Positions 1-24,296 of a stretch of 24,993 nucleotides of DNA are shown one piece after another (within the stretch, counting starts at the first letter, position 1; every line of letters begins with the position of its first letter). The notes under the pieces were generated by a model, which saw nothing but the letters and a program-made list of their open reading frames with translations, did no database searches and was not told the DNA's origin. The position numbers and the translations under genes are program-made. Origin of the DNA: a virus (Duplodnaviria; Heunggongvirae; Uroviricota; Caudoviricetes); IMG/VR virus record IMGVR_UViG_2778261537_000018, positions 1 to 24,993 of that record; one strand, given 5' to 3'.

Positions 1-1719
1 ATGATTTTTAGGGATAGCTTGAGAGTATTACCTTATGGTCGAGTAGATAATGATTTCTTCCAGATAGAAGAAAGACGTTCATGGAATGCAGGGCGATATT
101 ATTGGTCTAATAGAAGGATTTTTGGTTATATTGGAATTACTCAATCCAGTAATAAAGAGCTGAAAGATAAGTCGGGGAGAGAGGGATTCATAAGAAACCA
201 GGCTGCAAGAGAACTGAAAACTATTATATCTAATTTGTTAACTGAACTTGCTGATAGATTTTTTGGTTCACGTTCTGATGACCGTAAAGAGCTTTTAGAA
301 CAAGTTAAGCGTGAAAAAGAGTTAAGAAAATCTGCTCAACAACAAGCTCGAAAATCAACACAAAAAAGTTTTTCAGAAGCTTTGAAGAATCAGACACCAG
401 TTCTTGATGCTTCCTTGGAGGCTGTTAAAAGGCTGAAAACTAAGCTTGATAAAACTGATGGTTCGTTAGATTTAAACTATCTTAAAATTATAGACAGTGA
501 TCTTACAAACTTAGATGCGTTGCGCAGTGAAATTAAAACGCCTATCAAACCTCCAAAACTTGGAATGTATGAAGAGAAATATAGAGACTACAGAGATAAA
601 TTTAATGAGTTCTCTGCGTATATTCTACAAATGAAGTTAGCAATTAATAAACTTGATTCTGAATTAAATAAACTTGAGCCTTCATTGTCAGCGAAAAATC
701 ACCTTGAAAAAAATCAAGGTATTATTAATTCTAAACTAACTAAGTTTAATAACACGATAGAGGAGAAGATACATTCTCTTTTAAAAAAATGGGCCGATGA
801 AATAAAGGTTGATCGAAGTGATTATTATGCTAAAACTATATCAGTTGTTGATTCAATAGATAATGATTCACAAATTGAAAATGTGTTTAATTTGCTCGAT
901 AGTTTATATGTTGAGTCAGTTGATACCCTAATTTTCAAATATCAATCAATAATAAAAGGTCTCGATAGATTATTTGAAGGTATAAACTTAGATTCAGCAT
1001 TCTCATTATCTGAAGAAGAACGCTCATATTTTGAAGAAAAAGCTAAAAGTTTAAACGCGCTTGCACAGTTAGGTATTAGTGTTGAGATAATATCTCATGA
1101 ACTTGAAGAAATGGATTCTATGGTAACCAGAGGACTAAACTCTCTTCCTACTTCTGTAAAAGAACACCCTGGTTTTTCATTGGCGTTAAATGCTCACAGA
1201 TCGCTTACTCAACAAATACGTTTCTTATCACCTTTGAAAATATCAGGTTATCAATCCAGGCAGAGAATAACTGGAAAAAATATCATGGATTATGTCCTGA
1301 AGTTCTTTGGGGAGCGTTTCGAACGGCAACGAATAACTATTGAATTTAGTGAAGAGTTTAAGCAAATCGCAATAACAGATATACCATCAAGGATCTATCC
1401 TGTTTTTACTAATATTATCAACAATGCAATGTATTGGGTCAGTCTGTCAAATAATAGGCTCATAAAGATTGGTTTTGTGAATTCTTTGGTTATCATAGCA
1501 AATTCTGGTCCGGCAATTGATACCGATGATATCCCGCGACTATTTGAACTATTTTATAGCAAAAGAGCAAATGGACATGGGGTAGGTCTGTATCTATGTC
1601 GAGAAAACCTTGCTGTTGCACATCATAAAATATGGTATTCAGAACCTGATGAAGGCGATAACTATTTAATAAAAGATGGCGCTAATTTTGTGATCCAGTT
1701 CAATGGAGTGGAGTTCTAA
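1..1719 (+). CDS. Cytoplasmic histidine-kinase-like protein: coiled-coil N-terminal half, HisKA-like H-box, C-terminal HATPase_c (GHKL) domain
   Basis: ATG at 1, stop TAA 1717-1719. H-box-like IISHELEEM about 100 aa upstream of N-box NIINNAMYW; degenerate G1 box NSGPAID, F-box LFELF, G2 box GHGVGL. N-terminal half is K/E/L-rich (coiled-coil-like) with no obvious hydrophobic TM segment. Both window ends coincide with start codons, so the gene is probably complete. Confidence 0.6.
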   Translation: MIFRDSLRVLPYGRVDNDFFQIEERRSWNAGRYYWSNRRIFGYIGITQSSNKELKDKSGREGFIRNQAARELKTIISNLLTELADRFFGSRSDDRKELLEQVKREKELRKSAQQQARKSTQKSFSEALKNQTPVLDASLEAVKRLKTKLDKTDGSLDLNYLKIIDSDLTNLDALRSEIKTPIKPPKLGMYEEKYRDYRDKFNEFSAYILQMKLAINKLDSELNKLEPSLSAKNHLEKNQGIINSKLTKFNNTIEEKIHSLLKKWADEIKVDRSDYYAKTISVVDSIDNDSQIENVFNLLDSLYVESVDTLIFKYQSIIKGLDRLFEGINLDSAFSLSEEERSYFEEKAKSLNALAQLGISVEIISHELEEMDSMVTRGLNSLPTSVKEHPGFSLALNAHRSLTQQIRFLSPLKISGYQSRQRITGKNIMDYVLKFFGERFERQRITIEFSEEFKQIAITDIPSRIYPVFTNIINNAMYWVSLSNNRLIKIGFVNSLVIIANSGPAIDTDDIPRLFELFYSKRANGHGVGLYLCRENLAVAHHKIWYSEPDEGDNYLIKDGANFVIQFNGVEF

Positions 1720-1720
1720 T

Positions 1721-3469
1721 ATGACAGTGGCAAATTATAATTCTCTTGTCCAGAAAACTTTCTGCGAAAATGCAATTCGTTCCGTTGTCATGATTGATGA
1801 CGATTTTCTGACGTATTCTGAATCAATCAGGGCGTTGAATAACGAAGTTGATTTAGACTACAACAAAATTGACTCATCTAAACGAGCCGCTACTCTTGAG
1901 AGCTTTTTTCAATCTAAAAATATGATTTGTGATGTTGACAATGGTTCTGTTAATTTCGATGTGGATCGGATTAGAAAATCAGATCTTATTATTGTAGATT
2001 ATCATCTTGATAATAATGCACCTGATAAAACACTTAAACTATTACAAGATTTGAAAGACTCCGATCATTTAAATATGATTGTAATATATACTAGAGAGAA
2101 TTTAGAAACGGTTTGGATGCAGATATCATCGACTCTCAAAGGTGCTCTGGATATCAACAGCTTGATCATTGACTACGATAATGAAGATGTCCAAAGTTAT
2201 TGGGAAGACGTTGTATTACCGAACTTAAATGATAATGGTAATAAAGCTCTCACAAGAGATGAAACAATAGCCTATATTAAAGACAGTAAGCCTTGTAGAA
2301 GAATTAAAAGATTAATACATGATGATGCTGTGTTGGAGGATCAAAAGGATAAAAACTTCATTGCAAAAATGATTGCAGAATATGCTGTGTCTAGAAATGC
2401 AATTATTTCTAGCAACACATCTGGCTATGTCATTCGGGGTGATGAAAGCGGAGTAAAATGGATTCAATGTGGTAATATCTTTGTCTCCCTATTTCATAAG
2501 GTTCAAGATGATCATGAAAACGATGGAGATAGGATTTGGCAAACTCTCAATGATTCTCTCATTGAATGGAAACCATCTTATTATCAGTTAATAAAATCTG
2601 AAATTCAGAATGCAATCGAAGCTGAGGCTTTATCTTTTGTAAATCATTTGGCTAACGATCATTACGGTCAAGCTGCGTGGTTAAATGAGATATTAAAATC
2701 AGACTCGCCTGATATTAGATGTAGAAATATTGACTTTGTATTTGGTAATTTATCAGAAGAGCTTTATCAAAGACTTAAAAATAATAATACGCTGGATGAA
2801 TTTATCAAAAGTGTTTTTGATAGCTATTCAAATGAATACGCTAACAGCGGAGTTGCTGCATTGCTCCAATATTGCTCTTCAAAAATGGATCTGCCATCAA
2901 ATAATGATACTTATCACGAAATGTATCATGCTTTAAATATGAATTTGTCTTCAAAGAATTTTGAAGATGGTCATATTTCTACTGGCACTATTTTCTTTGA
3001 TACAGAGTCGAACAAATGGTATTTATGTGTGTCTGCGGCATGTGATTTGGTTCCTACTCAGGGTAACGACCCTCACCATGTAAGATTAAGTCCGCACAGG
3101 CTCATTAAAGTTCTGGAGCTTTTTAACGCCAGTCAGAGTAAAGCATTGCCATTTGCTGAACATTCGAAATATATATATGTAATGCATAAAAATCAAAGAA
3201 AATATCTCTCTATTTTCGAAGGGGATAAAACGCTTCCTGTTGTTGATTATATGGTGGTGTTGAATCATGGAACAACAGTTGATGGCGAAGAAAAAAATAT
3301 TATTTCTGCCGTGTTTTTAAGTAATATGGATGGCAACGTGCAAAATGTTCCTGTCCGACTCAAACTTAAATCTCAACTGAGAACTGGTTATGCAGAAAGA
3401 TATCAGGCTATAGCGTCTCAGTATAGCTCAAGGATTGGTGTGGATTATGTATCAATGATGCTACCATAA
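1721..3469 (+). CDS. Receiver (REC) domain protein with large uncharacterised C-terminal domain
   Basis: ATG 1721 preceded by GGAG at 1709-1712, immediately after the upstream stop (operon-like). N-terminal about 120 aa show REC hallmarks: VVMIDDD (acidic pair), DLIIVDYHLD (phospho-acceptor Asp position), MIVIYT (conserved Thr), then Lys. The remaining about 450 aa have no motif I recognise. ORF track start at 1703 overlaps the upstream gene; 1721 preferred. Confidence 0.6.
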   Translation: MTVANYNSLVQKTFCENAIRSVVMIDDDFLTYSESIRALNNEVDLDYNKIDSSKRAATLESFFQSKNMICDVDNGSVNFDVDRIRKSDLIIVDYHLDNNAPDKTLKLLQDLKDSDHLNMIVIYTRENLETVWMQISSTLKGALDINSLIIDYDNEDVQSYWEDVVLPNLNDNGNKALTRDETIAYIKDSKPCRRIKRLIHDDAVLEDQKDKNFIAKMIAEYAVSRNAIISSNTSGYVIRGDESGVKWIQCGNIFVSLFHKVQDDHENDGDRIWQTLNDSLIEWKPSYYQLIKSEIQNAIEAEALSFVNHLANDHYGQAAWLNEILKSDSPDIRCRNIDFVFGNLSEELYQRLKNNNTLDEFIKSVFDSYSNEYANSGVAALLQYCSSKMDLPSNNDTYHEMYHALNMNLSSKNFEDGHISTGTIFFDTESNKWYLCVSAACDLVPTQGNDPHHVRLSPHRLIKVLELFNASQSKALPFAEHSKYIYVMHKNQRKYLSIFEGDKTLPVVDYMVVLNHGTTVDGEEKNIISAVFLSNMDGNVQNVPVRLKLKSQLRTGYAERYQAIASQYSSRIGVDYVSMMLP

Positions 3470-3540: not shown

Positions 3541-3957
3541 TTATTTTTGTTTAAGTCTTCTAAGCTTCATGCATTCTAATGAGAATAATAATAGAGTTGT
3601 GCTGTATATAAAGCCAGAGTTAGTTAATAACTTTAAATTTAATGCTTCAGGATTTTCACTGAGAAAGTGAAAGGCATAAACTAAGTATACAGCTAAAGTA
3701 GCCGTTCCAATTGTTGGTCCAATATCGCCTTGATCATGAGGTTCAAGGTTTACATTGAACTTGAAGATTAGCCATTCAAATCCCCAAGTAAAAAAAACAA
3801 CTAATATCATGGCTGCGAATAATTTCGCGATGTTATCTGCTGATGGATTCATCAGAACAGATTGTTTCTGAAAAAATTCACAAAGTGAGAGTCCGAAAAA
3901 AATAAAAAAAAGTGGTCTGGAACTAAATTTTTCAAAAACTTTGAATAGGGTTTCCAT
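3541..3957 (-). CDS. Small hydrophobic protein (about 4 predicted TM segments), function unknown
   Basis: 138-aa ORF 38 bp downstream of the P4-type int on the same strand; hydrophobic stretches FFIFFGLSL, AAMILVVFFTWGF, ATLAVYLVYAF, FIYSTTLLLF; weak SD (GAAGGT) upstream of ATG at 3957. Confidence 0.4.
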   Translation of the reverse strand: METLFKVFEKFSSRPLFFIFFGLSLCEFFQKQSVLMNPSADNIAKLFAAMILVVFFTWGFEWLIFKFNVNLEPHDQGDIGPTIGTATLAVYLVYAFHFLSENPEALNLKLLTNSGFIYSTTLLLFSLECMKLRRLKQK

Positions 3958-3995
3958 TTTCTTTACCTTCAGGATTATATTAGCTATTCTGATAC

Positions 3996-5225
3996 TTAGG
4001 CTACCAGAGCATTTGATCTTTGAGCTTGAACGTAATCACTCCACCATTGCATCAAACTCTGTCGCTCTATCAGATATTCTGCACGATTGTATGCTGCGAT
4101 AATTTCATCTTTTTTCGAGTGGGCAAGCGCTGCCTCAAGAACTTCAGCTCTGAATTTACCAGACTCCTCTGCCGCTGTTCGTGCAATAGAACGCATACCG
4201 TGAGCTACAAGCTCGCCTCCGAACCCCATTCGGATGATAGCTGCGTTGGCTGTTTGTTCATGCATATGATTAAGAGGCGCTTTTATGCTGGGGAAAACCC
4301 ATTCTCTATGCCCACTTATTGATTTCATTAATTCAAGGATGCGCAAAGCTTCTTTACTCAAAGGAACTTTGTGAAGCTTTTTCATTTTCATGAAATCAGC
4401 AGGAATGTTCCAAATGCTGTTGGTTGTATCAATATCAGACCACCTTGCGCGAACGGCTTCACCCGGACGAACCCATGTCAACAATTGCCATTCAATTAGC
4501 ATACGTGTTTCCAACCGGATTGACGCATTCGTCAAAGATTCCATAAACCTTGGCAATTCGCTTGGGGGAAGGGCAGGCATATTTTGCTTTTTTGGTTTAC
4601 TGAATCTTTGACCAAGGTTGTCAGCCGGGTTGAACTCAATAAGTTCTTCAGTAGCTGCCCACCGGAAGATTTCATTCAGACGTGAAATGATACGGCGTAG
4701 AGTTTCCAATACGCCTCGTTGCTCAATAGGATCAAGGTGTTGTTTTAAGAGCTTAGGTCGGATCTCATTGATAGGGACATTACCCAGACCGGGAAAGACA
4801 TTTCTCTCTAAGCTGCGCCAGATGTCTGCTGCATGGTCTTGTGAGATACCTGATGTCTTTACCTTCTCATCTAACCATTTCCGCGCTACGGCTTGGAGAG
4901 TGTGCTCAGTAGCACTCTTTAATGCCTTCGCCTTATCGTTGTTATGGATTTGGGGATCAACACCATTTGCCAGAAAGGAGAGATATTCATCACGTAAGGC
5001 TCTGGCTCTTGCAAGGGTAAGGTGAGGATATGTCCCAAGGCTCATTTTGGTTCTTTTCTTGCTCACTGGTACTGCATACCTGAAATACCAATTTTTCTTG
5101 CCTCCTTTCGCCAAAGGAGCGATTCGTAGAATCAGACCATCACCGTCAAACAAGTTGATTTCTTTATCGGCTGGCTTGGTGCTTTTGATTTCAGTGTCAG
5201 TGAGCTTCTTAGCGATTTTTGCCAT
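3996..5225 (-). CDS. int: P4-type (CP4-57 IntA-like) tyrosine integrase
   Basis: N-terminus MAKIAKKLTDTEIKSTKP... with the arm-binding (DUF4102-like) signature of P4-family integrases; C-terminal catalytic region HGMRSIARTAAEE...AHS...YNRAEY. Start taken at the internal ATG (5223-5225) rather than the ORF-track start 5267. Sits next to the ssrA-derived 45-bp repeat, as intA does next to ssrA in E. coli K-12. Confidence 0.85.
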   Translation of the reverse strand: MAKIAKKLTDTEIKSTKPADKEINLFDGDGLILRIAPLAKGGKKNWYFRYAVPVSKKRTKMSLGTYPHLTLARARALRDEYLSFLANGVDPQIHNNDKAKALKSATEHTLQAVARKWLDEKVKTSGISQDHAADIWRSLERNVFPGLGNVPINEIRPKLLKQHLDPIEQRGVLETLRRIISRLNEIFRWAATEELIEFNPADNLGQRFSKPKKQNMPALPPSELPRFMESLTNASIRLETRMLIEWQLLTWVRPGEAVRARWSDIDTTNSIWNIPADFMKMKKLHKVPLSKEALRILELMKSISGHREWVFPSIKAPLNHMHEQTANAAIIRMGFGGELVAHGMRSIARTAAEESGKFRAEVLEAALAHSKKDEIIAAYNRAEYLIERQSLMQWWSDYVQAQRSNALVA

Positions 5226-5390
5226 TTTGGGACCCTCGGTTTTTGGACCCTTCTTAGTGGGTCCCATTCAGGGTGCCATAACTCGTAGTTCTCAGCAATT
5301 CTCACTGGACGACAATAGACGTAAAAAAGCCCGCAGAGCTTGTGCTGTGTGGGCTTAGTAGACTTCATTGAACTTCAAACAACTAAAAAG

Positions 5391-5435
5391 TGGTGGAGCT
5401 GGCGGGAGTTGAACCCGCGTCCGAAATTCCTACAT
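5391..5435. repeat. 45-bp direct repeat identical to the 3' end of ssrA (att site between tandem elements)
   Basis: tggtggagctggcgggagttgaacccgcgtccgaaattcctacat is identical at 5391-5435 and 23934-23978 (the 3' end of the intact tmRNA gene); sequences diverge immediately beyond on both sides. Confidence 0.85.
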
Positions 5436-5527
5436 ACTATTATTAATGGTTGAGATGCAATAATTTATCAATATTATCATTGATTTAGTGTTTTGGCGTA
5501 TTAGCAAGTGTTATGCATTTTTACTCT

Positions 5528-5550
5528 TCTGTCGCCATTTTGCCGCCACT
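5528..5550. repeat. 23-bp direct repeat, left copy (tctgtcgccattttgccgccact)
   Basis: Exact 23-mer also present at 23865-23887, same orientation; each copy lies just inside the 45-bp ssrA repeats. Confidence 0.8.
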
Positions 5551-5643
5551 TATACTAATGCAATAGAATATCTACCTACGATAATTTATACTGGAAGTGA
5601 TGAAAAAATAAAAAAATATCAATACTTTTCGATGTGGGGATAT

Positions 5644-7386
5644 ATGAAAACACAGAAATTCGTAAGTGAACTTTTTTTAGAAAATGGGCAGTTTATTCTA
5701 GTTGGCTTAACTGGAAGAACTGGTTCTGGTTGTACTACAGCAGCAACTATTTTAGAAAGTAATGAGACAGTATTTCCCGATGTGGATAAATTAACTGATT
5801 TTTATAATGGTTTAGATTTACAGCGTTATAAGATAGTTAAGGATTTCACTGAGAATCATTGGGAGGCATTTTACTCAATCAAGGTTAGTGACTTGCTATC
5901 AGTTTATTTGTTAGCAATGTCACATACTGAACTTTCACACTTCATCACGTCGTCAACTAAAGATAGCATTGATGAAGATAAATTAAACAAGATACTTAAT
6001 GAAGGAGCATTTTCAAAAACACAACTTAGAAAAATAAGGACGGATATATTAAAAGCACTTATTGATCATAGTCAAGAATTAGATCTCGATAATCTAGATG
6101 TATCTAACATAAGAAAAACATTGCATTTGGTTAGGTTTTTCACTAATAACTTCAAAAAAGAACTTAATGAGATAAATACAGGTCTTTATGTATCAACTTA
6201 TCAGGCCGCTGGAAAATCTGTTAGACGGCTTGGTGAAGTAAAAACAAACTATGAAACAGAAGAATTTGATCCAAAATCGGTATTTCATTTGCCTGAAACT
6301 ATTAATAGGGTCATTAAGCTAATTAGAAAAAGCCAAGGTGGTAAGGCATTAGTAGTTATTGATGCTATACGTAATCCATATGAAGCTAAATTCTTTAAAG
6401 ATAGATATGCTGCATTCCATTTGGTATCAATTAATGCTCCTGATGAGCATAGGAAAAAATATTTACAGAAGCTACACAAGTTTTCATCTGAGCGCATTAA
6501 ACACATTGATGATATTGAATCAGGAAAAGGAGATAAAGACAATCAATATAAACATTTAACGAACCCTAATGTAACGAAATGCATAGAAATTTCGGATATA
6601 CATCTTTATAATCCTAAAAATGAGTTTGATAACAATAACATACTTAAAGCACAACTTGCATGGTATATCGCTCTAATGAAGCATCCTGGATTGATCACTC
6701 CTACAGCGATGGAGCGAGTTATGCAGGTCGCATATACTGTTAAATTAAACTCTGGATGTATATCGAGGCAGGTCGGTGCCGTTGTTACAGATAATGATAA
6801 TTCAATTAAATCAGTTGGTTGGAATGATGTAGCTAAAGGGCAGATACCATGTTCAATGAGATCACTCGATGGGTTGATCAATGATTTTGATTCGAAAGTA
6901 TATAGCTCATATGAGCGAAATGATGCTCTTTTTAGAAAGAAAGCTAAAAGTAATTTAATAAAGTTTAGAGCGATTGAATCAAGCTCTGAAATTTTTAAAG
7001 GACGTAATTTGTCATATTGCTTCAAGGATATTCATAATAGTCTTAATGATGATAAAAAAGGGAATCAGGTCCATACCAGAGCTTTACATGCTGAAGAAAA
7101 TGCCTTTTTACAATTATCTAAATATGGTGGCGTTGGTGTCCAAGGTGGTAAGTTGTATACTACAGCAAGTCCTTGTGAACTTTGTGCAAAAAAAGCATAT
7201 CAATTAGAGGTCGCTGAAATAATTTTCATTGATCCTTATCCGGGTATTGCACAAGATCATATTATTAATATAGGTAATAATCCACCTAAATTAATTCAAT
7301 TTAGAGGGGCAATTGGTAAATCATATCATCGATTATATGAACAAATTATTCCTATGAAAGATGAGTTGGATTATTTATCAATGTAA
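5644..7386 (+). CDS. P-loop kinase-like domain fused to cytidine/deoxycytidylate deaminase domain (AvcD/DcdV-like anti-phage dCTP deaminase architecture)
   Basis: N-terminal Walker-A-like GLTGRTGSGCTT; C-terminal zinc-deaminase signature HAEENAF...SPCELCAKK (H-x-E and PC-x-x-C). Start placed at ATG 5644 (GGGGA 3-7 nt upstream); in-frame alternatives at 5632 and 5488. AT-rich relative to phage backbone. Stop 7384-7386 is 9 bp from the convergent int stop. Confidence 0.65.
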   Translation: MKTQKFVSELFLENGQFILVGLTGRTGSGCTTAATILESNETVFPDVDKLTDFYNGLDLQRYKIVKDFTENHWEAFYSIKVSDLLSVYLLAMSHTELSHFITSSTKDSIDEDKLNKILNEGAFSKTQLRKIRTDILKALIDHSQELDLDNLDVSNIRKTLHLVRFFTNNFKKELNEINTGLYVSTYQAAGKSVRRLGEVKTNYETEEFDPKSVFHLPETINRVIKLIRKSQGGKALVVIDAIRNPYEAKFFKDRYAAFHLVSINAPDEHRKKYLQKLHKFSSERIKHIDDIESGKGDKDNQYKHLTNPNVTKCIEISDIHLYNPKNEFDNNNILKAQLAWYIALMKHPGLITPTAMERVMQVAYTVKLNSGCISRQVGAVVTDNDNSIKSVGWNDVAKGQIPCSMRSLDGLINDFDSKVYSSYERNDALFRKKAKSNLIKFRAIESSSEIFKGRNLSYCFKDIHNSLNDDKKGNQVHTRALHAEENAFLQLSKYGGVGVQGGKLYTTASPCELCAKKAYQLEVAEIIFIDPYPGIAQDHIINIGNNPPKLIQFRGAIGKSYHRLYEQIIPMKDELDYLSM

Positions 7387-15095: not shown

Positions 15096-15363
15096 GAAAC
15101 GTTGCTGGCGTCTGAACTTGTTTCTGGCGTCAGCAAGGTTGAACAACGAGCCCTTGCGAGGCGTTAGCTCTGTAGTGCATGTCTATGCCGCATGAGATCG
15201 CATGATCGTTTGAGGATCGTTTTTGCTAAGGCCCGCCAGAACTGGTGGGCTTTTGCGTAGATCATGCAGGTGCATGAAAACCACTACATAAAGCGGGCAG
15301 GCGTGGCGGGGATACGAGCGCGCGCTAACTCATAAATCCTAGATTATTAGTGGATTTATCTCA

Positions 15364-17187
15364 TTGAAATGTGCACTATTCCCAGCATTGAGTTGTACCA
15401 GATGTCTTTATGGAGGGACTGTGGCTTTTGTAACTGATATTCGGCTTGAAGATAATGCTATTGCTGCACCTGCGACAGCACAGGTTATGGCTCAGAGGCT
15501 AGGATCTGTATTACGTAAGAGATATGAAGAATTCATCCATAAAAGAGAGTGTGCACCAGGCCAAGCAGACTATGATGTAAAAATGGCTAGCAGGGCTTTA
15601 GCCGCATTCACTATGTATCAGTTAGGATGTGTGGATGATAAGTATGCAGGGGAGTCTGTATGTGATAGTAGTGAAGATGGTGGTATAGATGGAATAGCAA
15701 TCAACCATAACGAAAAAATCGTTGTTGTTGTTCAATCAAAATTTCACCAATCGGGAAACGGCACTTGGACAAGAGCCGATTTTATGTGTTTTAAGGATGC
15801 TTGTGAGAAGCTACAAAGTGAAAGATACGAATTATTTGATTCCATATTGCAAAATAAAAGCGGGGAAATAAGTGCGGCTTTAAGTAGTTTTGAATACAAG
15901 TTCATCTTTGCGATGGCGCATACAGGTAAAAAAGGTGCTGCAGAGGAAATATTAAATGATATGCGGGAATGGCAATATCAATTAAACGCTGCAGCTTTTA
16001 CACCTGAGGATGAGCCTAAAGAGAACTGGGGATTTCAGGTTCATTTAATATCCTCTGAAGATATGATGCATTGGTTACAGAATGGCTCTCGAAATCAAAT
16101 TGATCTTAACAGGGTTGAAATTGAGCGTTTTGGATTTTTGAATGAACCATATCAAGCTTTTTACGGGGCTATTAGTGGTGATCAAGTTGCAGAATGGTGG
16201 GAAGAGCATGGTGCTCGATTATTTACAAAAAACATAAGGAATATGCTTGGTAAAACAGAAGTGAATGAGGAAATAAAAAAGACAGCTATAGATAATCCTG
16301 ATATGTTTTGGTTTTATAATAATGGGATTACTGTACTGGTTAAGGAAGTTGTTCCTCATAGACGAAACGCAGCTCCTAATATAGAGAGAGGGATTTTTGA
16401 TTTTCGTGATGTAAGTGTCATTAATGGTGCACAAACAGTCAGTAGTATTGGCGCATGTAAAGATGCGCTTGGTGAAAACATATATAGACTCAAAGTGCCA
16501 GCTAGATTCATTGTTATAGATGATGATACTGATAATTTAACTGCAAATGCAATTACAAAAGCTAACAATTTCCAAAATAGAGTATTGGGAAGAGATTTTG
16601 CATCGCAGCAGGCAGATCAACATAGATTGGCAAGGGAGTTAGTGCTTGAAGGATATCAATATCAGTTACTAAGAACAGATGAAGATCATTCACAGACAAA
16701 TACGAAAGTCATTGACTTGGATGAGGCGCTCAATGCACTCGCATGTTTAAGTAAAAATAATACGGTTGTATCGACACTAAAATCAAATCGCGGTAGGTTT
16801 TTTGAAAATTTTGAAGGCTCTCTATATAAAACTATTTTCAATCCAAGATTAAGTGGTTTAAAACTTATCAATACTGTTCTACATTTTAGAGTTATAGATA
16901 AGTTGATCGGTAAAACATTACTATCAGTAGATAAAACGACCCATAGTCGCAAGCATTTAATTATTACGCATGGTAATAGATACTATGCGTCTGTACTATT
17001 GAGCAACGTTTCTGGGATACATAATAGCTCAGAAATTCTTGTTCCAGATGAAAAAAATCTTTCCGAAGAATTAAGTGCATTAATTCAACGTGCTGAAGAG
17101 TACATTGAAGATAATTACCCGAATGCCTATCCGGCAAGATTTTTTGCAAATCCAACGAAAATACAAGAGTTATACGATAATGTTTAA
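15364..17187 (+). CDS. AIPR-like putative abortive-infection protein with N-terminal PD-(D/E)xK-like motif
   Basis: Long AT-rich ORF between repA and the portal gene (the P2 old/tin cargo position). N-terminal DGGIDGIAI...VVVVQSKF resembles a PD-(D/E)xK (Mrr-like) core; FWFYNNGITVLV and VINGAQT resemble AIPR-family motifs as I recall them. True start uncertain (in-frame TTG 15364, GTG 15421, ATG 15487). Confidence 0.5.
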   Translation: MKCALFPALSCTRCLYGGTVAFVTDIRLEDNAIAAPATAQVMAQRLGSVLRKRYEEFIHKRECAPGQADYDVKMASRALAAFTMYQLGCVDDKYAGESVCDSSEDGGIDGIAINHNEKIVVVVQSKFHQSGNGTWTRADFMCFKDACEKLQSERYELFDSILQNKSGEISAALSSFEYKFIFAMAHTGKKGAAEEILNDMREWQYQLNAAAFTPEDEPKENWGFQVHLISSEDMMHWLQNGSRNQIDLNRVEIERFGFLNEPYQAFYGAISGDQVAEWWEEHGARLFTKNIRNMLGKTEVNEEIKKTAIDNPDMFWFYNNGITVLVKEVVPHRRNAAPNIERGIFDFRDVSVINGAQTVSSIGACKDALGENIYRLKVPARFIVIDDDTDNLTANAITKANNFQNRVLGRDFASQQADQHRLARELVLEGYQYQLLRTDEDHSQTNTKVIDLDEALNALACLSKNNTVVSTLKSNRGRFFENFEGSLYKTIFNPRLSGLKLINTVLHFRVIDKLIGKTLLSVDKTTHSRKHLIITHGNRYYASVLLSNVSGIHNSSEILVPDEKNLSEELSALIQRAEEYIEDNYPNAYPARFFANPTKIQELYDNV

Positions 17188-17190
17188 ACT

Positions 17191-17217
17191 AAAGGGAGGT
17201 TGCCTCCCTTTTTTTTA
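17191..17217. terminator. Rho-independent terminator between the AIPR-like gene and the portal gene (bidirectional candidate)
   Basis: aaAGGGAGGttgCCTCCCTttttttttt: 7-bp GC-rich stem (17193-17199 / 17203-17209), 3-nt loop, T-run 17209-17216; lies between convergent stops at 17187 and 17219. Confidence 0.6.
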
Positions 17218-17218
17218 A

Positions 17219-18244
17219 TTAGAAATGGTATTCTTGGAATTCAATAACACCTTCTTTTATGAAATTGTTTATTTCTTGTAATCTTTTTTGCAATGGCAAT
17301 AATTCATTACGTACAAATACTTTACTCGCCTTCTCTACATCTCCAAAGCCCCCGACATTATTAGGCATTATCCCCATCATTTGTGGCGGCACACGATGCG
17401 CCGCCATCATGTCGTCCCGGCTCACGTTCTTGATATTCAGGAACTCATCCTTCGCCGCCACTTCTGACAACGGGATAATCTGAAGCCCGTCCTTTTTACC
17501 GTTAGGCGAGTACATAAACAGGTTACGGAAGTTACCAGGACCTTTGGCGCTTTTCATCGCATTGCGGAGGTTGTTCACATCCTCCTGGTTCTGCGCTGCA
17601 TCGGTCATGTACATGATGAAGCCTGCATGACTGCCGTTAATGTAATACTTGCGGCGGAACAGCGTGGCGGACTCGTTGAGCAAAGCGGATGGGATGGCAG
17701 AAAGATAGCCGGGCAGGCCGTAGATCTCCTGATTAATATCCGGTTCCATCAGATGAAAAATGCTGCCTTTCGTGAACTGATACGGCTGGGTTGTCATACC
17801 GTATTGCACAAACCAGTAGGTATCCAGGTCTAACCCGCGTCGGGTGTATTTTGCCAGAGCAGGCTCAAGGGCGATAACTTCACCGAAGCGGTTCGTGCGT
17901 TTCTCCAGGTAGGCGTTACCAAATACCAGATAGTCCTGCACAAAACGTGAAAAATCCTGCTGGCTGAGCAGCGGGTGAGGGATGTAGGTACTGGTCAGAA
18001 TGTTGCATTTCACTGCAATCGGTGAACTGTGATGCACGGCGGCGCGGAAGGTGCGCGCCAGCCCGTCAAAGCTTACTGGCGGCTCATACCAGCGATCTGT
18101 CTGTACGCATTCCACATAGTCCAGCAGTTCGCGGCGGTCCAGAACAGGAACGGGATCACCGAAGCTGAATGCTTCGGCTGAAGTCTGGCTTTTATGCTGG
18201 ATCTGGTTCGTCGACGCAGCGCGGTTCTTCTTACTCTTTCCCAT
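17219..18244 (-). CDS. Phage portal protein (P2 gpQ family)
   Basis: About 341 aa, same size as P2 Q; directly downstream of and overlapping the terminase large subunit gene by 1 nt on the same strand; position matches the P2 Q-P arrangement. Confidence 0.8.
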   Translation of the reverse strand: MGKSKKNRAASTNQIQHKSQTSAEAFSFGDPVPVLDRRELLDYVECVQTDRWYEPPVSFDGLARTFRAAVHHSSPIAVKCNILTSTYIPHPLLSQQDFSRFVQDYLVFGNAYLEKRTNRFGEVIALEPALAKYTRRGLDLDTYWFVQYGMTTQPYQFTKGSIFHLMEPDINQEIYGLPGYLSAIPSALLNESATLFRRKYYINGSHAGFIMYMTDAAQNQEDVNNLRNAMKSAKGPGNFRNLFMYSPNGKKDGLQIIPLSEVAAKDEFLNIKNVSRDDMMAAHRVPPQMMGIMPNNVGGFGDVEKASKVFVRNELLPLQKRLQEINNFIKEGVIEFQEYHF

Positions 18245-20010
18245 CAAAAAATCTCCACAATATTGCTGGTATTGGCGGACTCGCCCTGCAGCGGTTCGTT
18301 AAACAGTGCGTGCATTGTTGCCCAGGCCAGATCCGCATGGCTGGCTTCTTCGCTGCGGCTGGCTTCATAGGTCGGGCGGTTGCCGCTGGCGGTGGTGGCG
18401 CGACGGATTGCCATAAATGACTGCGCTATGTCGGTGTGTCCGGCGTCAAACTCCAGACGGCGGTGACTGATAATGTCGTAGGCCTTGAGTACCAGGGCGT
18501 TTTTAACATTGGGGTTGTAGACAAACTCCCGGACGGCAGGAAAAAACGCTTTCACGTTCTCGTAAACCCCGTGACCGACGCCGGTTGAGTCGATACCGAT
18601 ATATGTCACGTTGTACTGTTCAGTCAGTTTTTTGATGGCGTCAGCCTGGGCGCGGAAGTCCATCCCGCGCCACTGGTGACGCTCAAGAATGCGGAACTTA
18701 CCACCCGGCACGGCTGGCGGAGCCACTACCACGCATCCGGCACTGTCGCCGTTCTGCGTACCTTTTGCCGGGTCATAACCGATCCACACTTCGCGCCAGC
18801 CAAACGGGCGCAGGGCCAGTGCATGAAAGTCGGTCCAGACTTCCCAGCTGTCCACCATGCACGCCTGCAGTTCGCTGAGCGGGAACACGGACGCGAGATC
18901 GTCCACGAACTCGCACATCAGCAGGTTCTGGTATTCGTCCGGGCTGTACTCCATGCGCAGCTGGTCGAGGTCGAACAGGTTACAGCCGCCGCGCACCGCA
19001 TCTTCCACGGTGACTATCTGGCGGTATTGCCCGTCTGCGCACAGCAGGCCGGGGGCCAGATTGCTGTGGGACAGGTCGATGTCCACCTTGTCAGCTTTGT
19101 TGCGTCCACGGTTGAACAGCGCACCGGACCAGAACGGATAAGCACTGTGGGTCAGGCTGGATGGCGTGGAAAAATAGGTTTGTCGCCATTTCTTGTGAAT
19201 AGCCATCCCGGAAGCCACTTTGCGCAGCTCCTGGAATTTCGGTATCCAGAAATATTCATCCAGATACAGGTTGCCGTGATAACTCTGGGCCGTGCGGGCA
19301 TTGGTGCCGAGGAAGTAAAGCGTGGCTCCGTTAGGAAGCACCATCGGATCGCCTTTTAGCTCCACCTCGACTTCTTTGGCGAAGTCGATGATGTATTGTT
19401 TAAAGACGTGGGCCTGAGCCTTACTGGCAGAAAGGAAAATCTGGTTACGTCCGGTAAGCAGGGCGTCAATCAGGGCTTCACGGGCAAAATAGAAGGTCGC
19501 GCCGATCTGGCGAGACTTCAGCAGGTTGCGGATACGGTTGGTTTTTCCGGCTTCCCACCAGTGGCGCTGGTAGTTGAACATGGAGGAATGGAAGATTTCT
19601 TCCAGCTTCTCAATCTGCTCATCGGTGAAAACATTCTTTTCCGGCTGACGGCGTGGGCCTTTATTGCGGTTGGCGACGTTAGGGTTTAAGTCGGCTTCGT
19701 TGCCGCCATTGTTAAACTTGCCGATCCGCGCGTGGCGCTCAGACTGGCGCGCCAGCAGGTCAATCTCTTTGAAATCTTTCCCTTCTTTGTGCTCCTTCAT
19801 GATGAGCTGGCAGTAGCGTGCGGCGGTGGTGAGCTGCATCTGATCCAGCGGCCCATAGTCACCCCACTTGTCGCGTTTTTTCCAGCTGTGAACGGTTGCA
19901 ACTTTCTCGCCCAGCATTTCAGCAATGCGGGCTACGCGGTATCCCTGAAAGTACAGCAGCATGGCCTGCCGACGGGGATCGAGATCTGCGGGTGTCAGTG
20001 TGGTGTTCAT
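18244..20010 (-). CDS. Terminase large (ATPase) subunit (P2 gpP family)
   Basis: 588 aa, the size of P2 P; divergent from the scaffold gene as in P2 (Q-P leftward, O-N-M-L rightward). Confidence 0.8.
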   Translation of the reverse strand: MNTTLTPADLDPRRQAMLLYFQGYRVARIAEMLGEKVATVHSWKKRDKWGDYGPLDQMQLTTAARYCQLIMKEHKEGKDFKEIDLLARQSERHARIGKFNNGGNEADLNPNVANRNKGPRRQPEKNVFTDEQIEKLEEIFHSSMFNYQRHWWEAGKTNRIRNLLKSRQIGATFYFAREALIDALLTGRNQIFLSASKAQAHVFKQYIIDFAKEVEVELKGDPMVLPNGATLYFLGTNARTAQSYHGNLYLDEYFWIPKFQELRKVASGMAIHKKWRQTYFSTPSSLTHSAYPFWSGALFNRGRNKADKVDIDLSHSNLAPGLLCADGQYRQIVTVEDAVRGGCNLFDLDQLRMEYSPDEYQNLLMCEFVDDLASVFPLSELQACMVDSWEVWTDFHALALRPFGWREVWIGYDPAKGTQNGDSAGCVVVAPPAVPGGKFRILERHQWRGMDFRAQADAIKKLTEQYNVTYIGIDSTGVGHGVYENVKAFFPAVREFVYNPNVKNALVLKAYDIISHRRLEFDAGHTDIAQSFMAIRRATTASGNRPTYEASRSEEASHADLAWATMHALFNEPLQGESANTSNIVEIF

Positions 20011-22810: not shown

Positions 22811-23014
22811 ATGAAGTTTGTTGCGCCAGAACAGGCACCGGAACAGGCGGAAATCATCAGAAATACGCCGTTCTGGCCTGATGTGGACCTGTCGGAGTTT
22901 CGCAGTGTCATGCGCACTGACGGCACGGTGACGCAGCCGCGTTTAAAGCAGGTTGACGGTTTTACAACCAGTATTGAACTCGAAGTGAAGATTGATGATC
23001 TTGAAATGGAGTAA
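22811..23014 (+). pseudogene. Truncated head completion/stabilisation gene (P2 gpL N-terminal fragment)
   Basis: ATG 22811 with AGGAGA SD; MKFVAPEQ...FWPDVDLSEFRSVMRTDGTVTQPRL matches the gpL N-terminus; ORF ends after 67 aa whereas gpL is about 169 aa; the next gene is ogr, so the intervening morphogenetic genes are deleted. Confidence 0.5.
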
Positions 23015-23327: not shown

Positions 23328-23810
23328 TTATTCATCTGGGATCTCACCCGTTTCAAGAAAATGTATAAAGCCAGGCTCATCTATGATGATTGTGCCTTTC
23401 ATCCTGGCTGCCGATACTTTTGATGGGCCTGCATTGTAACCGCAACAGAGCATCTGAAGGCTTTGGGTTACAGAGGTTCTTACCGTTAATCCTTGTTCAT
23501 TCGCCTTATCAACCAATCTTTCTTTATCTGCTTTCTTAAATCCGGTGAAACACACATCGAATGTATTTTTTTTCGGACCAGACTGCTTGGTGAGATGTGA
23601 GTAGTTTTCGGGGAGGAATGACGCGCACTCCTGAATGGCTTGTTCTGGTGAATCGTACTGTTTAAGAATGCGGTCTTTTCGGAAGGTTTTTATTCGATCG
23701 GTGTTCTTACAAATGCCCTGTATATGATTTTCGCTATAACTGATGCTCTGTATAGAGTGAACACCGATACGACCATTTGCATTGATGTAAACAAAGTGAA
23801 GTTCTTCCAT
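23328..23810 (-). CDS. Small WYL-like / BRCT-domain protein, function unknown
   Basis: 160-aa AT-rich ORF between ogr and ssrA. C-terminal 75 aa fit a BRCT fold pattern (CFTGF...RLV...GLTVRTSVTQSLQMLCCGYNAGPSKVSAARMKGTIIIDEPGF, compare LigA BRCT VLTGSL...[41 protein letters not shown]). N-terminal part has an R-x-F-R-x-D-R-I-like motif (KTFRKDRI) reminiscent of WYL domains. Confidence 0.4.
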   Translation of the reverse strand: MEELHFVYINANGRIGVHSIQSISYSENHIQGICKNTDRIKTFRKDRILKQYDSPEQAIQECASFLPENYSHLTKQSGPKKNTFDVCFTGFKKADKERLVDKANEQGLTVRTSVTQSLQMLCCGYNAGPSKVSAARMKGTIIIDEPGFIHFLETGEIPDE

Positions 23811-23933: not shown

Positions 23934-24296
23934 TGGTGGAGCTGGCGGGAGTTGAACCCGCGTCCGAAATTCCTACATCCTCGGTACTACATGCTTAGTC
24001 AGTCTTTACATTCGCTTGCCAGCTGCGGACGGACACGCCACTAACAAACTAGCCTGATTAAGTTTTAACGCTTCAACCCCAGGCAGGGCTTCCACGCGAT
24101 CTCTTTTGGGTTTGACCTCTCTTGATCCCCGTCCTAAGAGCGGAGGCTAGGGAGAGAGGGCTCTAAGCAGGTTATTAAGCTGCTAAAGCGTAGTTTTCGT
24201 CGTTTGCGACTATTTTTTGCGGCTTTTTACGAGGCCAACCGCCCCTCGGCATGCACCTTGGGTTTCGCAAATCCCGTCGAATCCAGAATCAGCCCC
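23934..24296 (-). ncRNA. ssrA: tmRNA (SsrA), intact 363-nt gene
   Basis: Reverse complement reads GGGGCTGATTCTGGATTCGACGGGATTTGCG...TAAAAACTTAATCAGGCTAGTTTGTTAGTGG...GGGTTCAACTCCCGCCAGCTCCACCA, matching E. coli tmRNA as I recall it; lies immediately downstream of smpB on the same strand. Confidence 0.95.

Follow-up and report, generated by a model that had tools for sequence, protein, structure and literature searches.

An AIPR/AbiU-family gene carried as cos-portal cargo by a P2-like prophage remnant and predicted to encode a gated nuclease

Results

A P2-like prophage remnant with a single gene between cos and the portal gene

The window, that is, the whole stretch of 24,993 nt analysed here, contains a P2-like prophage of ~18.5 kb, whose two ends are marked by identical, directly repeated 45-bp copies of the ssrA 3' end. 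Between its cos site and the portal gene Q, an open reading frame on the plus strand (15364-17187) encodes a protein of the AIPR family. The features of the locus are as follows.

5391-5435 and 23934-23978: att sites, ssrA 3'-end repeats
~15168-15174, unstranded: second cargo slot, from the DinI-like gene to cos, empty here (sister prophages)
15300-15318, plus: homolog of the P2 cos site, GGCGTGGCGGGGATACGAG, just ahead of the cargo (aligned with the cos junction of circularised P2; P2 annotation)
15327-17272, unstranded: cargo slot from cos to the portal gene Q (homology breaks against strain 600468, blastn; GC 36.2%)
15364-15420, plus: upstream in-frame extension, probably an untranslated leader with the ribosome-binding site (sequence; homologs)
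15421-17187, plus: AIPR/AbiU-family gene, GTG start, 588 aa plus stop (ORF, homolog start, identity to WP_021542068)
15553-16092, plus: putative N-terminal PD-(D/E)xK-like nuclease domain, about aa 45-224
15688-15690, 15733-15735 and 15739-15741, plus: putative catalytic residues D90, Q105 and K107
16222-17109, plus: AIPR domain PF10592, aa 268-563, a putative ParB/sulfiredoxin-like core followed by a helical C-terminal part
16306-16332 and 16420-16437, plus: core motifs FWFYNNGIT and INGAQT within the AIPR domain
17191-17219, plus: intrinsic terminator (hairpin with T run), lying between the AIPR gene and the convergent portal gene (repeat search, RNA fold)
17219-18247, minus: portal gene
23934-24296, minus: ssrA tmRNA gene

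The prophage carries a deletion junction at 22955/22956, where the head-completion gene, cut in its middle, is joined to the final ~59 nt of gene D; the junction was called where homology to intact P2-like prophages jumps from the former gene to the end of the latter. The tail and lysis genes have therefore all been lost and the element is a defective remnant, in which the head genes, the packaging genes and both defence genes are intact. An Rfam search over the whole window found the tmRNA and nothing else.

Several other genes of the window were recorded in passing. The second defence gene of the prophage, at 5488-7386 (plus), encodes an anti-phage dCTP deaminase of 632 aa (PADLOC dCTPase, E 2.5e-140; Pfam dCMP_cyt_deam_1); it is AT-rich, lies within the att boundaries and adjoins the P2-type integrase. 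At the right end of the prophage, between ogr and ssrA, a 160-aa ORF (23328-23810, minus) has a weak BRCT-domain match, and its counterparts in other E. coli genomes are annotated as BRCT domain-containing proteins. A second integrase island sits in tandem at ssrA (1-3469, plus; 3541-3957 and 3996-5267, minus). With a GC content of 29-37%, it encodes an HEF_HK/HATPase_c protein of 572 aa, whose gene overlaps that of a 588-aa Response_reg_2 protein, together with a 138-aa ORF without a family match. Against PADLOC this island gave nothing significant, with one chance-level match (E 0.003), and it could be an uncharacterised conflict system.

Start codon, composition and terminator of the AIPR gene

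The open reading frame can be opened at TTG 15364, the start given in a preliminary description of this DNA, or 57 nt downstream at GTG 15421. The TTG start was rejected: homologs begin at the position of GTG 15421, and a GGAGGG stretch (15412-15417) lies just upstream of the latter codon. In an alignment of 35 sequences, 34 of them full-length homologs at 52-87% identity, MAF, MAL or MPI opens every sequence at this position and none of the homologs extends upstream of MAFV; moreover, the PGAP start in near-identical E. coli genes is the equivalent of GTG 15421. The GTG codon is thus almost certainly the real start, so that the product would have 588 rather than 607 residues. The reading frame and its stop at 17187 stand as first described, with the start moved downstream.

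The other compositional claims made for the gene hold. It is AT-rich, the cargo segment having a GC content of 36.2% compared with 52.6% for repA and 54.7% for the portal and terminase genes. It is also followed by a clean terminator, formed by a 9-bp stem at 17191-17211 with five G-C pairs and a succeeding T run (RNA fold -15.5 kcal/mol, z -3.4). A promoter scan returned 7 sites against 8.7 expected in shuffled sequence, and hence no promoter signal above chance.

The gene is replaceable cargo at one of two insertion points flanking cos

The AIPR gene lies between gene A and gene Q, adjoins cos and is the sole occupant of the cos-Q slot. The ends of this slot, 15327 and 17272, are the points at which homology to a related prophage with other cargo breaks; in that prophage, of strain 600468, an AAA ATPase and an S8 peptidase occupy the same place (blastn). 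In prophages encoding the identical AIPR protein, the slot between the DinI-like gene and cos holds a DUF2971 gene, a ComF gene plus a hypothetical gene, or AAA plus HNH genes. Because this slot is filled variably in sister prophages, the A-to-Q hotspot consists of two insertion points flanking cos. P2 itself has old and tin in the interval from gene A to cos, and leaves only about 170 bp from cos to Q. The AIPR gene was initially assigned to the old/tin position; the assignment holds for the hotspot as a whole, yet not for the literal slot, since old and tin are on the A side of cos and the AIPR gene is on the Q side. No flanking repeats suggesting transposition or site-specific insertion were found around the cargo, the terminator hairpin being the sole meaningful match.

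Among 5,426 complete E. coli genomes, the AIPR gene is present in 12 and its left flank in 1,276. The identical protein adjoins four different neighbouring cargos, and prophage backbones that differ in their portal proteins carry the same intact frame. Five alleles differ at 9 nucleotide sites, all of which (9/9) are synonymous, arguing for purifying selection. These data show that the AIPR gene is replaceable cargo, and the proposed comparison of hotspot content across P2-like prophages has thereby confirmed that the content of the hotspot varies, both in the slot itself (strain 600468) and in the neighbouring cargos.

Gene, location and domain logic have all been reported before. The protein is identical in amino-acid sequence to RefSeq WP_021542068, annotated as an AIPR family protein, and the P2-hotspot Table S5A of Rousset et al. 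(2022) catalogues it in at least 12 entries with varying neighbours. Rousset et al. (2022) also define the A-to-Q variable region of P2-like prophages, and AIPR figures among the systems that they show as abundant at the P4 hotspot.

Family membership and genomic contexts of homologs

The protein was suspected from its motifs to be AIPR-like, and the Pfam search places it in that family far above chance: AIPR (PF10592) matched with 121.5 bits (cut-off 25; E 7.3e-35) over model positions 1-305 of 308, and the same domain was found in all 35 aligned homologs. The PADLOC AbiU profile (PDLC02357) matched aa 96-582 of the 607-aa ORF query over profile positions 45-512 of 537 (E 7.4e-25, 86 bits), and PHROG 1841, described as 'Abi alpha-like abortive infection', matched with E 8e-173. 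MzaE models hit only the AIPR core, at aa 267-415 of the 607-aa query (PADLOC 1.5e-13, NCBIfam 5.5e-16). The score of 58 bits is far below the MzaE equivalog cut-off of 1050, the AIPR gene is single in its slot, and no MzaA-D neighbours were found in the cos-Q slot. A literature search joining MzaE with AIPR found nothing relevant.

Full-length homologs at 52-87% identity span Gammaproteobacteria and cyanobacteria and share ~130 invariant positions. The family has divergent members on 115 plasmids and in further P2-like phages, and homologs are also found in non-phage islands. In Pectobacterium, Vibrio and Pseudomonas, the homologs are lone genes in integrase-linked islands; all their neighbours differ, and no conserved partner gene was found across these three distant contexts. 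Judged from its genomic contexts, the AIPR gene thus appears to be a single-gene system without an obligatory partner. The Pectobacterium island (L009/L010, genes at 1083-2204 and 3666-4919) also carries PDDEXK_4 and RES-domain genes and an Hcp gene, and looks like a defence or toxin island.

Domain architecture and conserved residues

The motifs first noticed in the sequence (DGGID...VVQSK, FWFYNNGIT and NGAQT) were all found and are invariant or nearly so across the homologs at 52-87% identity, in the forms D86-G-G-I-D90...V-V-Q105-S-K107, F296-W-x-x-N-N-G-x-T304 and I334-N-G-A-Q-T339. D90, Q105 and K107 are invariant in the 35 aligned sequences and are kept in a P4-borne AIPR protein at 33% identity as well. 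An AlphaFold2 model built from the 35-sequence alignment (mean pLDDT 82.6) gives the N-terminal domain a restriction-endonuclease-like alpha/beta core fold, with the conserved D...(D/E/Q)xK residues on core strands, just ahead of strand 91-95 and inside strand 100-107. The best-ranked structural match was the FokI cleavage domain, as a 2026 review also reports for lactococcal AbiUi; in a Foldseek search of the full model against the PDB, no match reached E<=0.001, and a profile search of PDB sequences returned only chance melanocortin-receptor matches.

The Mrr_cat profile aligned exactly to the D...QxK stretch but scored only 12.4 bits where 21 are required (E 0.17). Over the 35 homologs, Mrr_cat matched in 3 and Mrr_cat_2 in 2, every match again being sub-threshold. 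The nuclease-like N-terminus put forward in the preliminary description is therefore favoured by the fold and the conserved residues, and not by the Mrr profile search proposed for it. Taken together, the fold and the conserved residues support a putative PD-(D/E)xK nuclease.

Within the AIPR domain, the invariant I-N-G-A-Q-T lies at a place analogous to the DGQQR/DGQHR motif, with threonine instead of arginine, the structural equivalence being presumed. In distant homologs, the AIPR core is conserved and the N-terminus does not align. In a profile search, no domain that reads DNA modifications, such as SRA or YTH, was detected. A ParB-plus-nuclease architecture for AbiU1/AIPR was published in 2013 (Makarova et al.).

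Discussion

A predicted gated nuclease and its alternatives

We consider it fairly probable (roughly 60%) that the gene is a stand-alone AbiU-type anti-phage gene, carried as exchangeable cos-portal cargo of a P2-like remnant at ssrA and encoding a predicted gated DNA nuclease. In this model, expression of the AIPR gene would be driven by its own short upstream region. The effector would be the N-terminal FokI/MspJI/Mrr-like PD-(D/E)xK domain (D90, Q105-x-K107). Its cleavage would be licensed upon infection by a switch that senses nucleotides or DNA, made up of the central ParB/DUF262-like module (NNGIT...NGAQT) and the helical C-terminal domain. Damage to the DNA of the invading phage or of the infected cell may then delay phage transcription and cause a modest plaquing defect, as in lactococcal AbiU. 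For the latter, the 2026 review lists the mechanism as unknown and reports delayed phage transcription with plaquing down only 10- to 100-fold; the view of the AIPR family as mechanistically uncharacterised is thus borne out by the literature on AbiU/AIPR. A narrower version, in which this AIPR subfamily would be an NTP-gated FokI/MspJI-like nuclease with the ParB-type module as nucleotide switch or DNA clamp, we regard as doubtful.

Several points weigh against a gated nuclease: Mrr_cat stays sub-threshold, neither the Foldseek search nor the profile search of the PDB gave a significant match, the ParB-type motif NGAQT is without the arginine, the AbiU effect is small, and the P4-hotspot AIPR gene of E. 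coli E1167, cloned as pFR77 among the 'additional tested systems', was not validated against eight coliphages (Rousset et al. 2022). That this 33%-identical homolog was not validated would also fit a gene without a phage-defence role in E. coli, either a selfish or addiction-type nuclease toxin or a passenger in decay, maintained solely by its place in a recombination hotspot, and so would the rarity of the gene (12 of 5,426 genomes) and the fact that its host prophage is a deletion remnant. We think this rather unlikely: an intact, identical frame across different backbones with only synonymous allelic differences, full-length homologs (52-87% identity) that reach from Gammaproteobacteria to cyanobacteria and keep some 130 positions invariant, and the absence of an antitoxin-like partner all argue against it. 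A different kind of defence, a type IV-like, modification-dependent restriction enzyme that destroys modified phage DNA instead of acting as an abortive-infection or suicide factor, is unlikely too; the profile search detected no modification reader domain such as SRA or YTH.

The division of labour within the protein might also be reversed, the ParB-like AIPR core being the catalytic nuclease or NTPase and the FokI-like N-terminus, with glutamine for the usual acidic residue, serving only in DNA binding or dimerisation. We find this improbable: a purely structural N-terminal domain would not be expected to keep D90, Q105 and K107 without variation across the subfamily and also in the P4 homolog. 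QxK is, moreover, an accepted catalytic variant among Mrr-type enzymes. On the other side stand the conservation of the core, and not of the N-terminus, in distant homologs, and the label 'ParB superfamily nuclease domain' that Makarova et al. gave to the AIPR/COG1479 core. That the gene is instead a conserved core gene of the phage, such as an accessory protein in cos packaging, is suggested by its position right beside cos and would have overturned the preliminary description. It is extremely improbable, and we rejected it on account of the distribution: the gene is absent from P2 (cos to Q about 170 bp) and from most flank-sharing P2-like prophages, is replaced by unrelated genes in strain 600468, and has homologs in non-phage islands and on plasmids.

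AbiU/AIPR proteins are found widely on prophages, satellites, plasmids and genomic islands. If the NTP-gated nuclease were true, it would be the first mechanism for the family; if type IV-like targeting of modified or P2-competing phage DNA were true, it might explain why the eight-phage panel missed the P4 homolog. As a genome-scan result the gain is small, since both the type of gene and the hotspot were already known, and the interest lies in tractability only: an E. coli member in which candidates for the catalytic residues (D90/Q105/K107) and for the switch motif (NGAQT) can be named would serve well as a model for the family.

Comparison with known systems

In its design, the gated nuclease that we infer would be analogous, not homologous, to GmrSD, BrxU and SspE, which join a nuclease to a DUF262 ParB-like domain that controls it. 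The domain order differs, the nuclease of the AIPR protein being N-terminal, and the nuclease domain there is DUF1524, which is HNH-type, in contrast to the PD-(D/E)xK domain predicted here. NGAQT also differs from DGQQR in lacking the arginine, and no significant sequence match was obtained. MzaE of the MZA system shares the AIPR core, whereas its score (58 bits against the equivalog cut-off of 1050) and the absence of MzaA-D neighbours around the AIPR gene set it apart. P2 old and tin have no homology to the AIPR gene and lie on the A side of cos rather than the Q side, while all of them are non-essential cargo, anti-phage in P2 and probably here, of the same A-to-Q variable region (Rousset et al. 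2022).

Closer relatives are the carriers of WP_021542068, which have the identical protein in the same cos-portal position; the prophage of the window differs in its vacant DinI-cos slot and in the loss of its tail and lysis genes. The pFR77 AIPR gene differs in its carrier, a P4 satellite, and in its divergent sequence; it is likewise cos-adjacent cargo with the same architecture, and the two proteins share 33% identity over about 400 aa (E 1e-72) and the motifs D...QSK, FWYYNNGIT and NGAQT. Compared with AbiU of Lactococcus lactis (AbiU1/AbiUi), the gene described here is Gram-negative and prophage-borne and is without an adjoining AbiU2 (HEPN) partner gene. Both are nonetheless single proteins of similar size borne on mobile elements, linked by a near full-length HMM match through the PADLOC profile (E 7.4e-25) and by the same structural match to the FokI cleavage domain.
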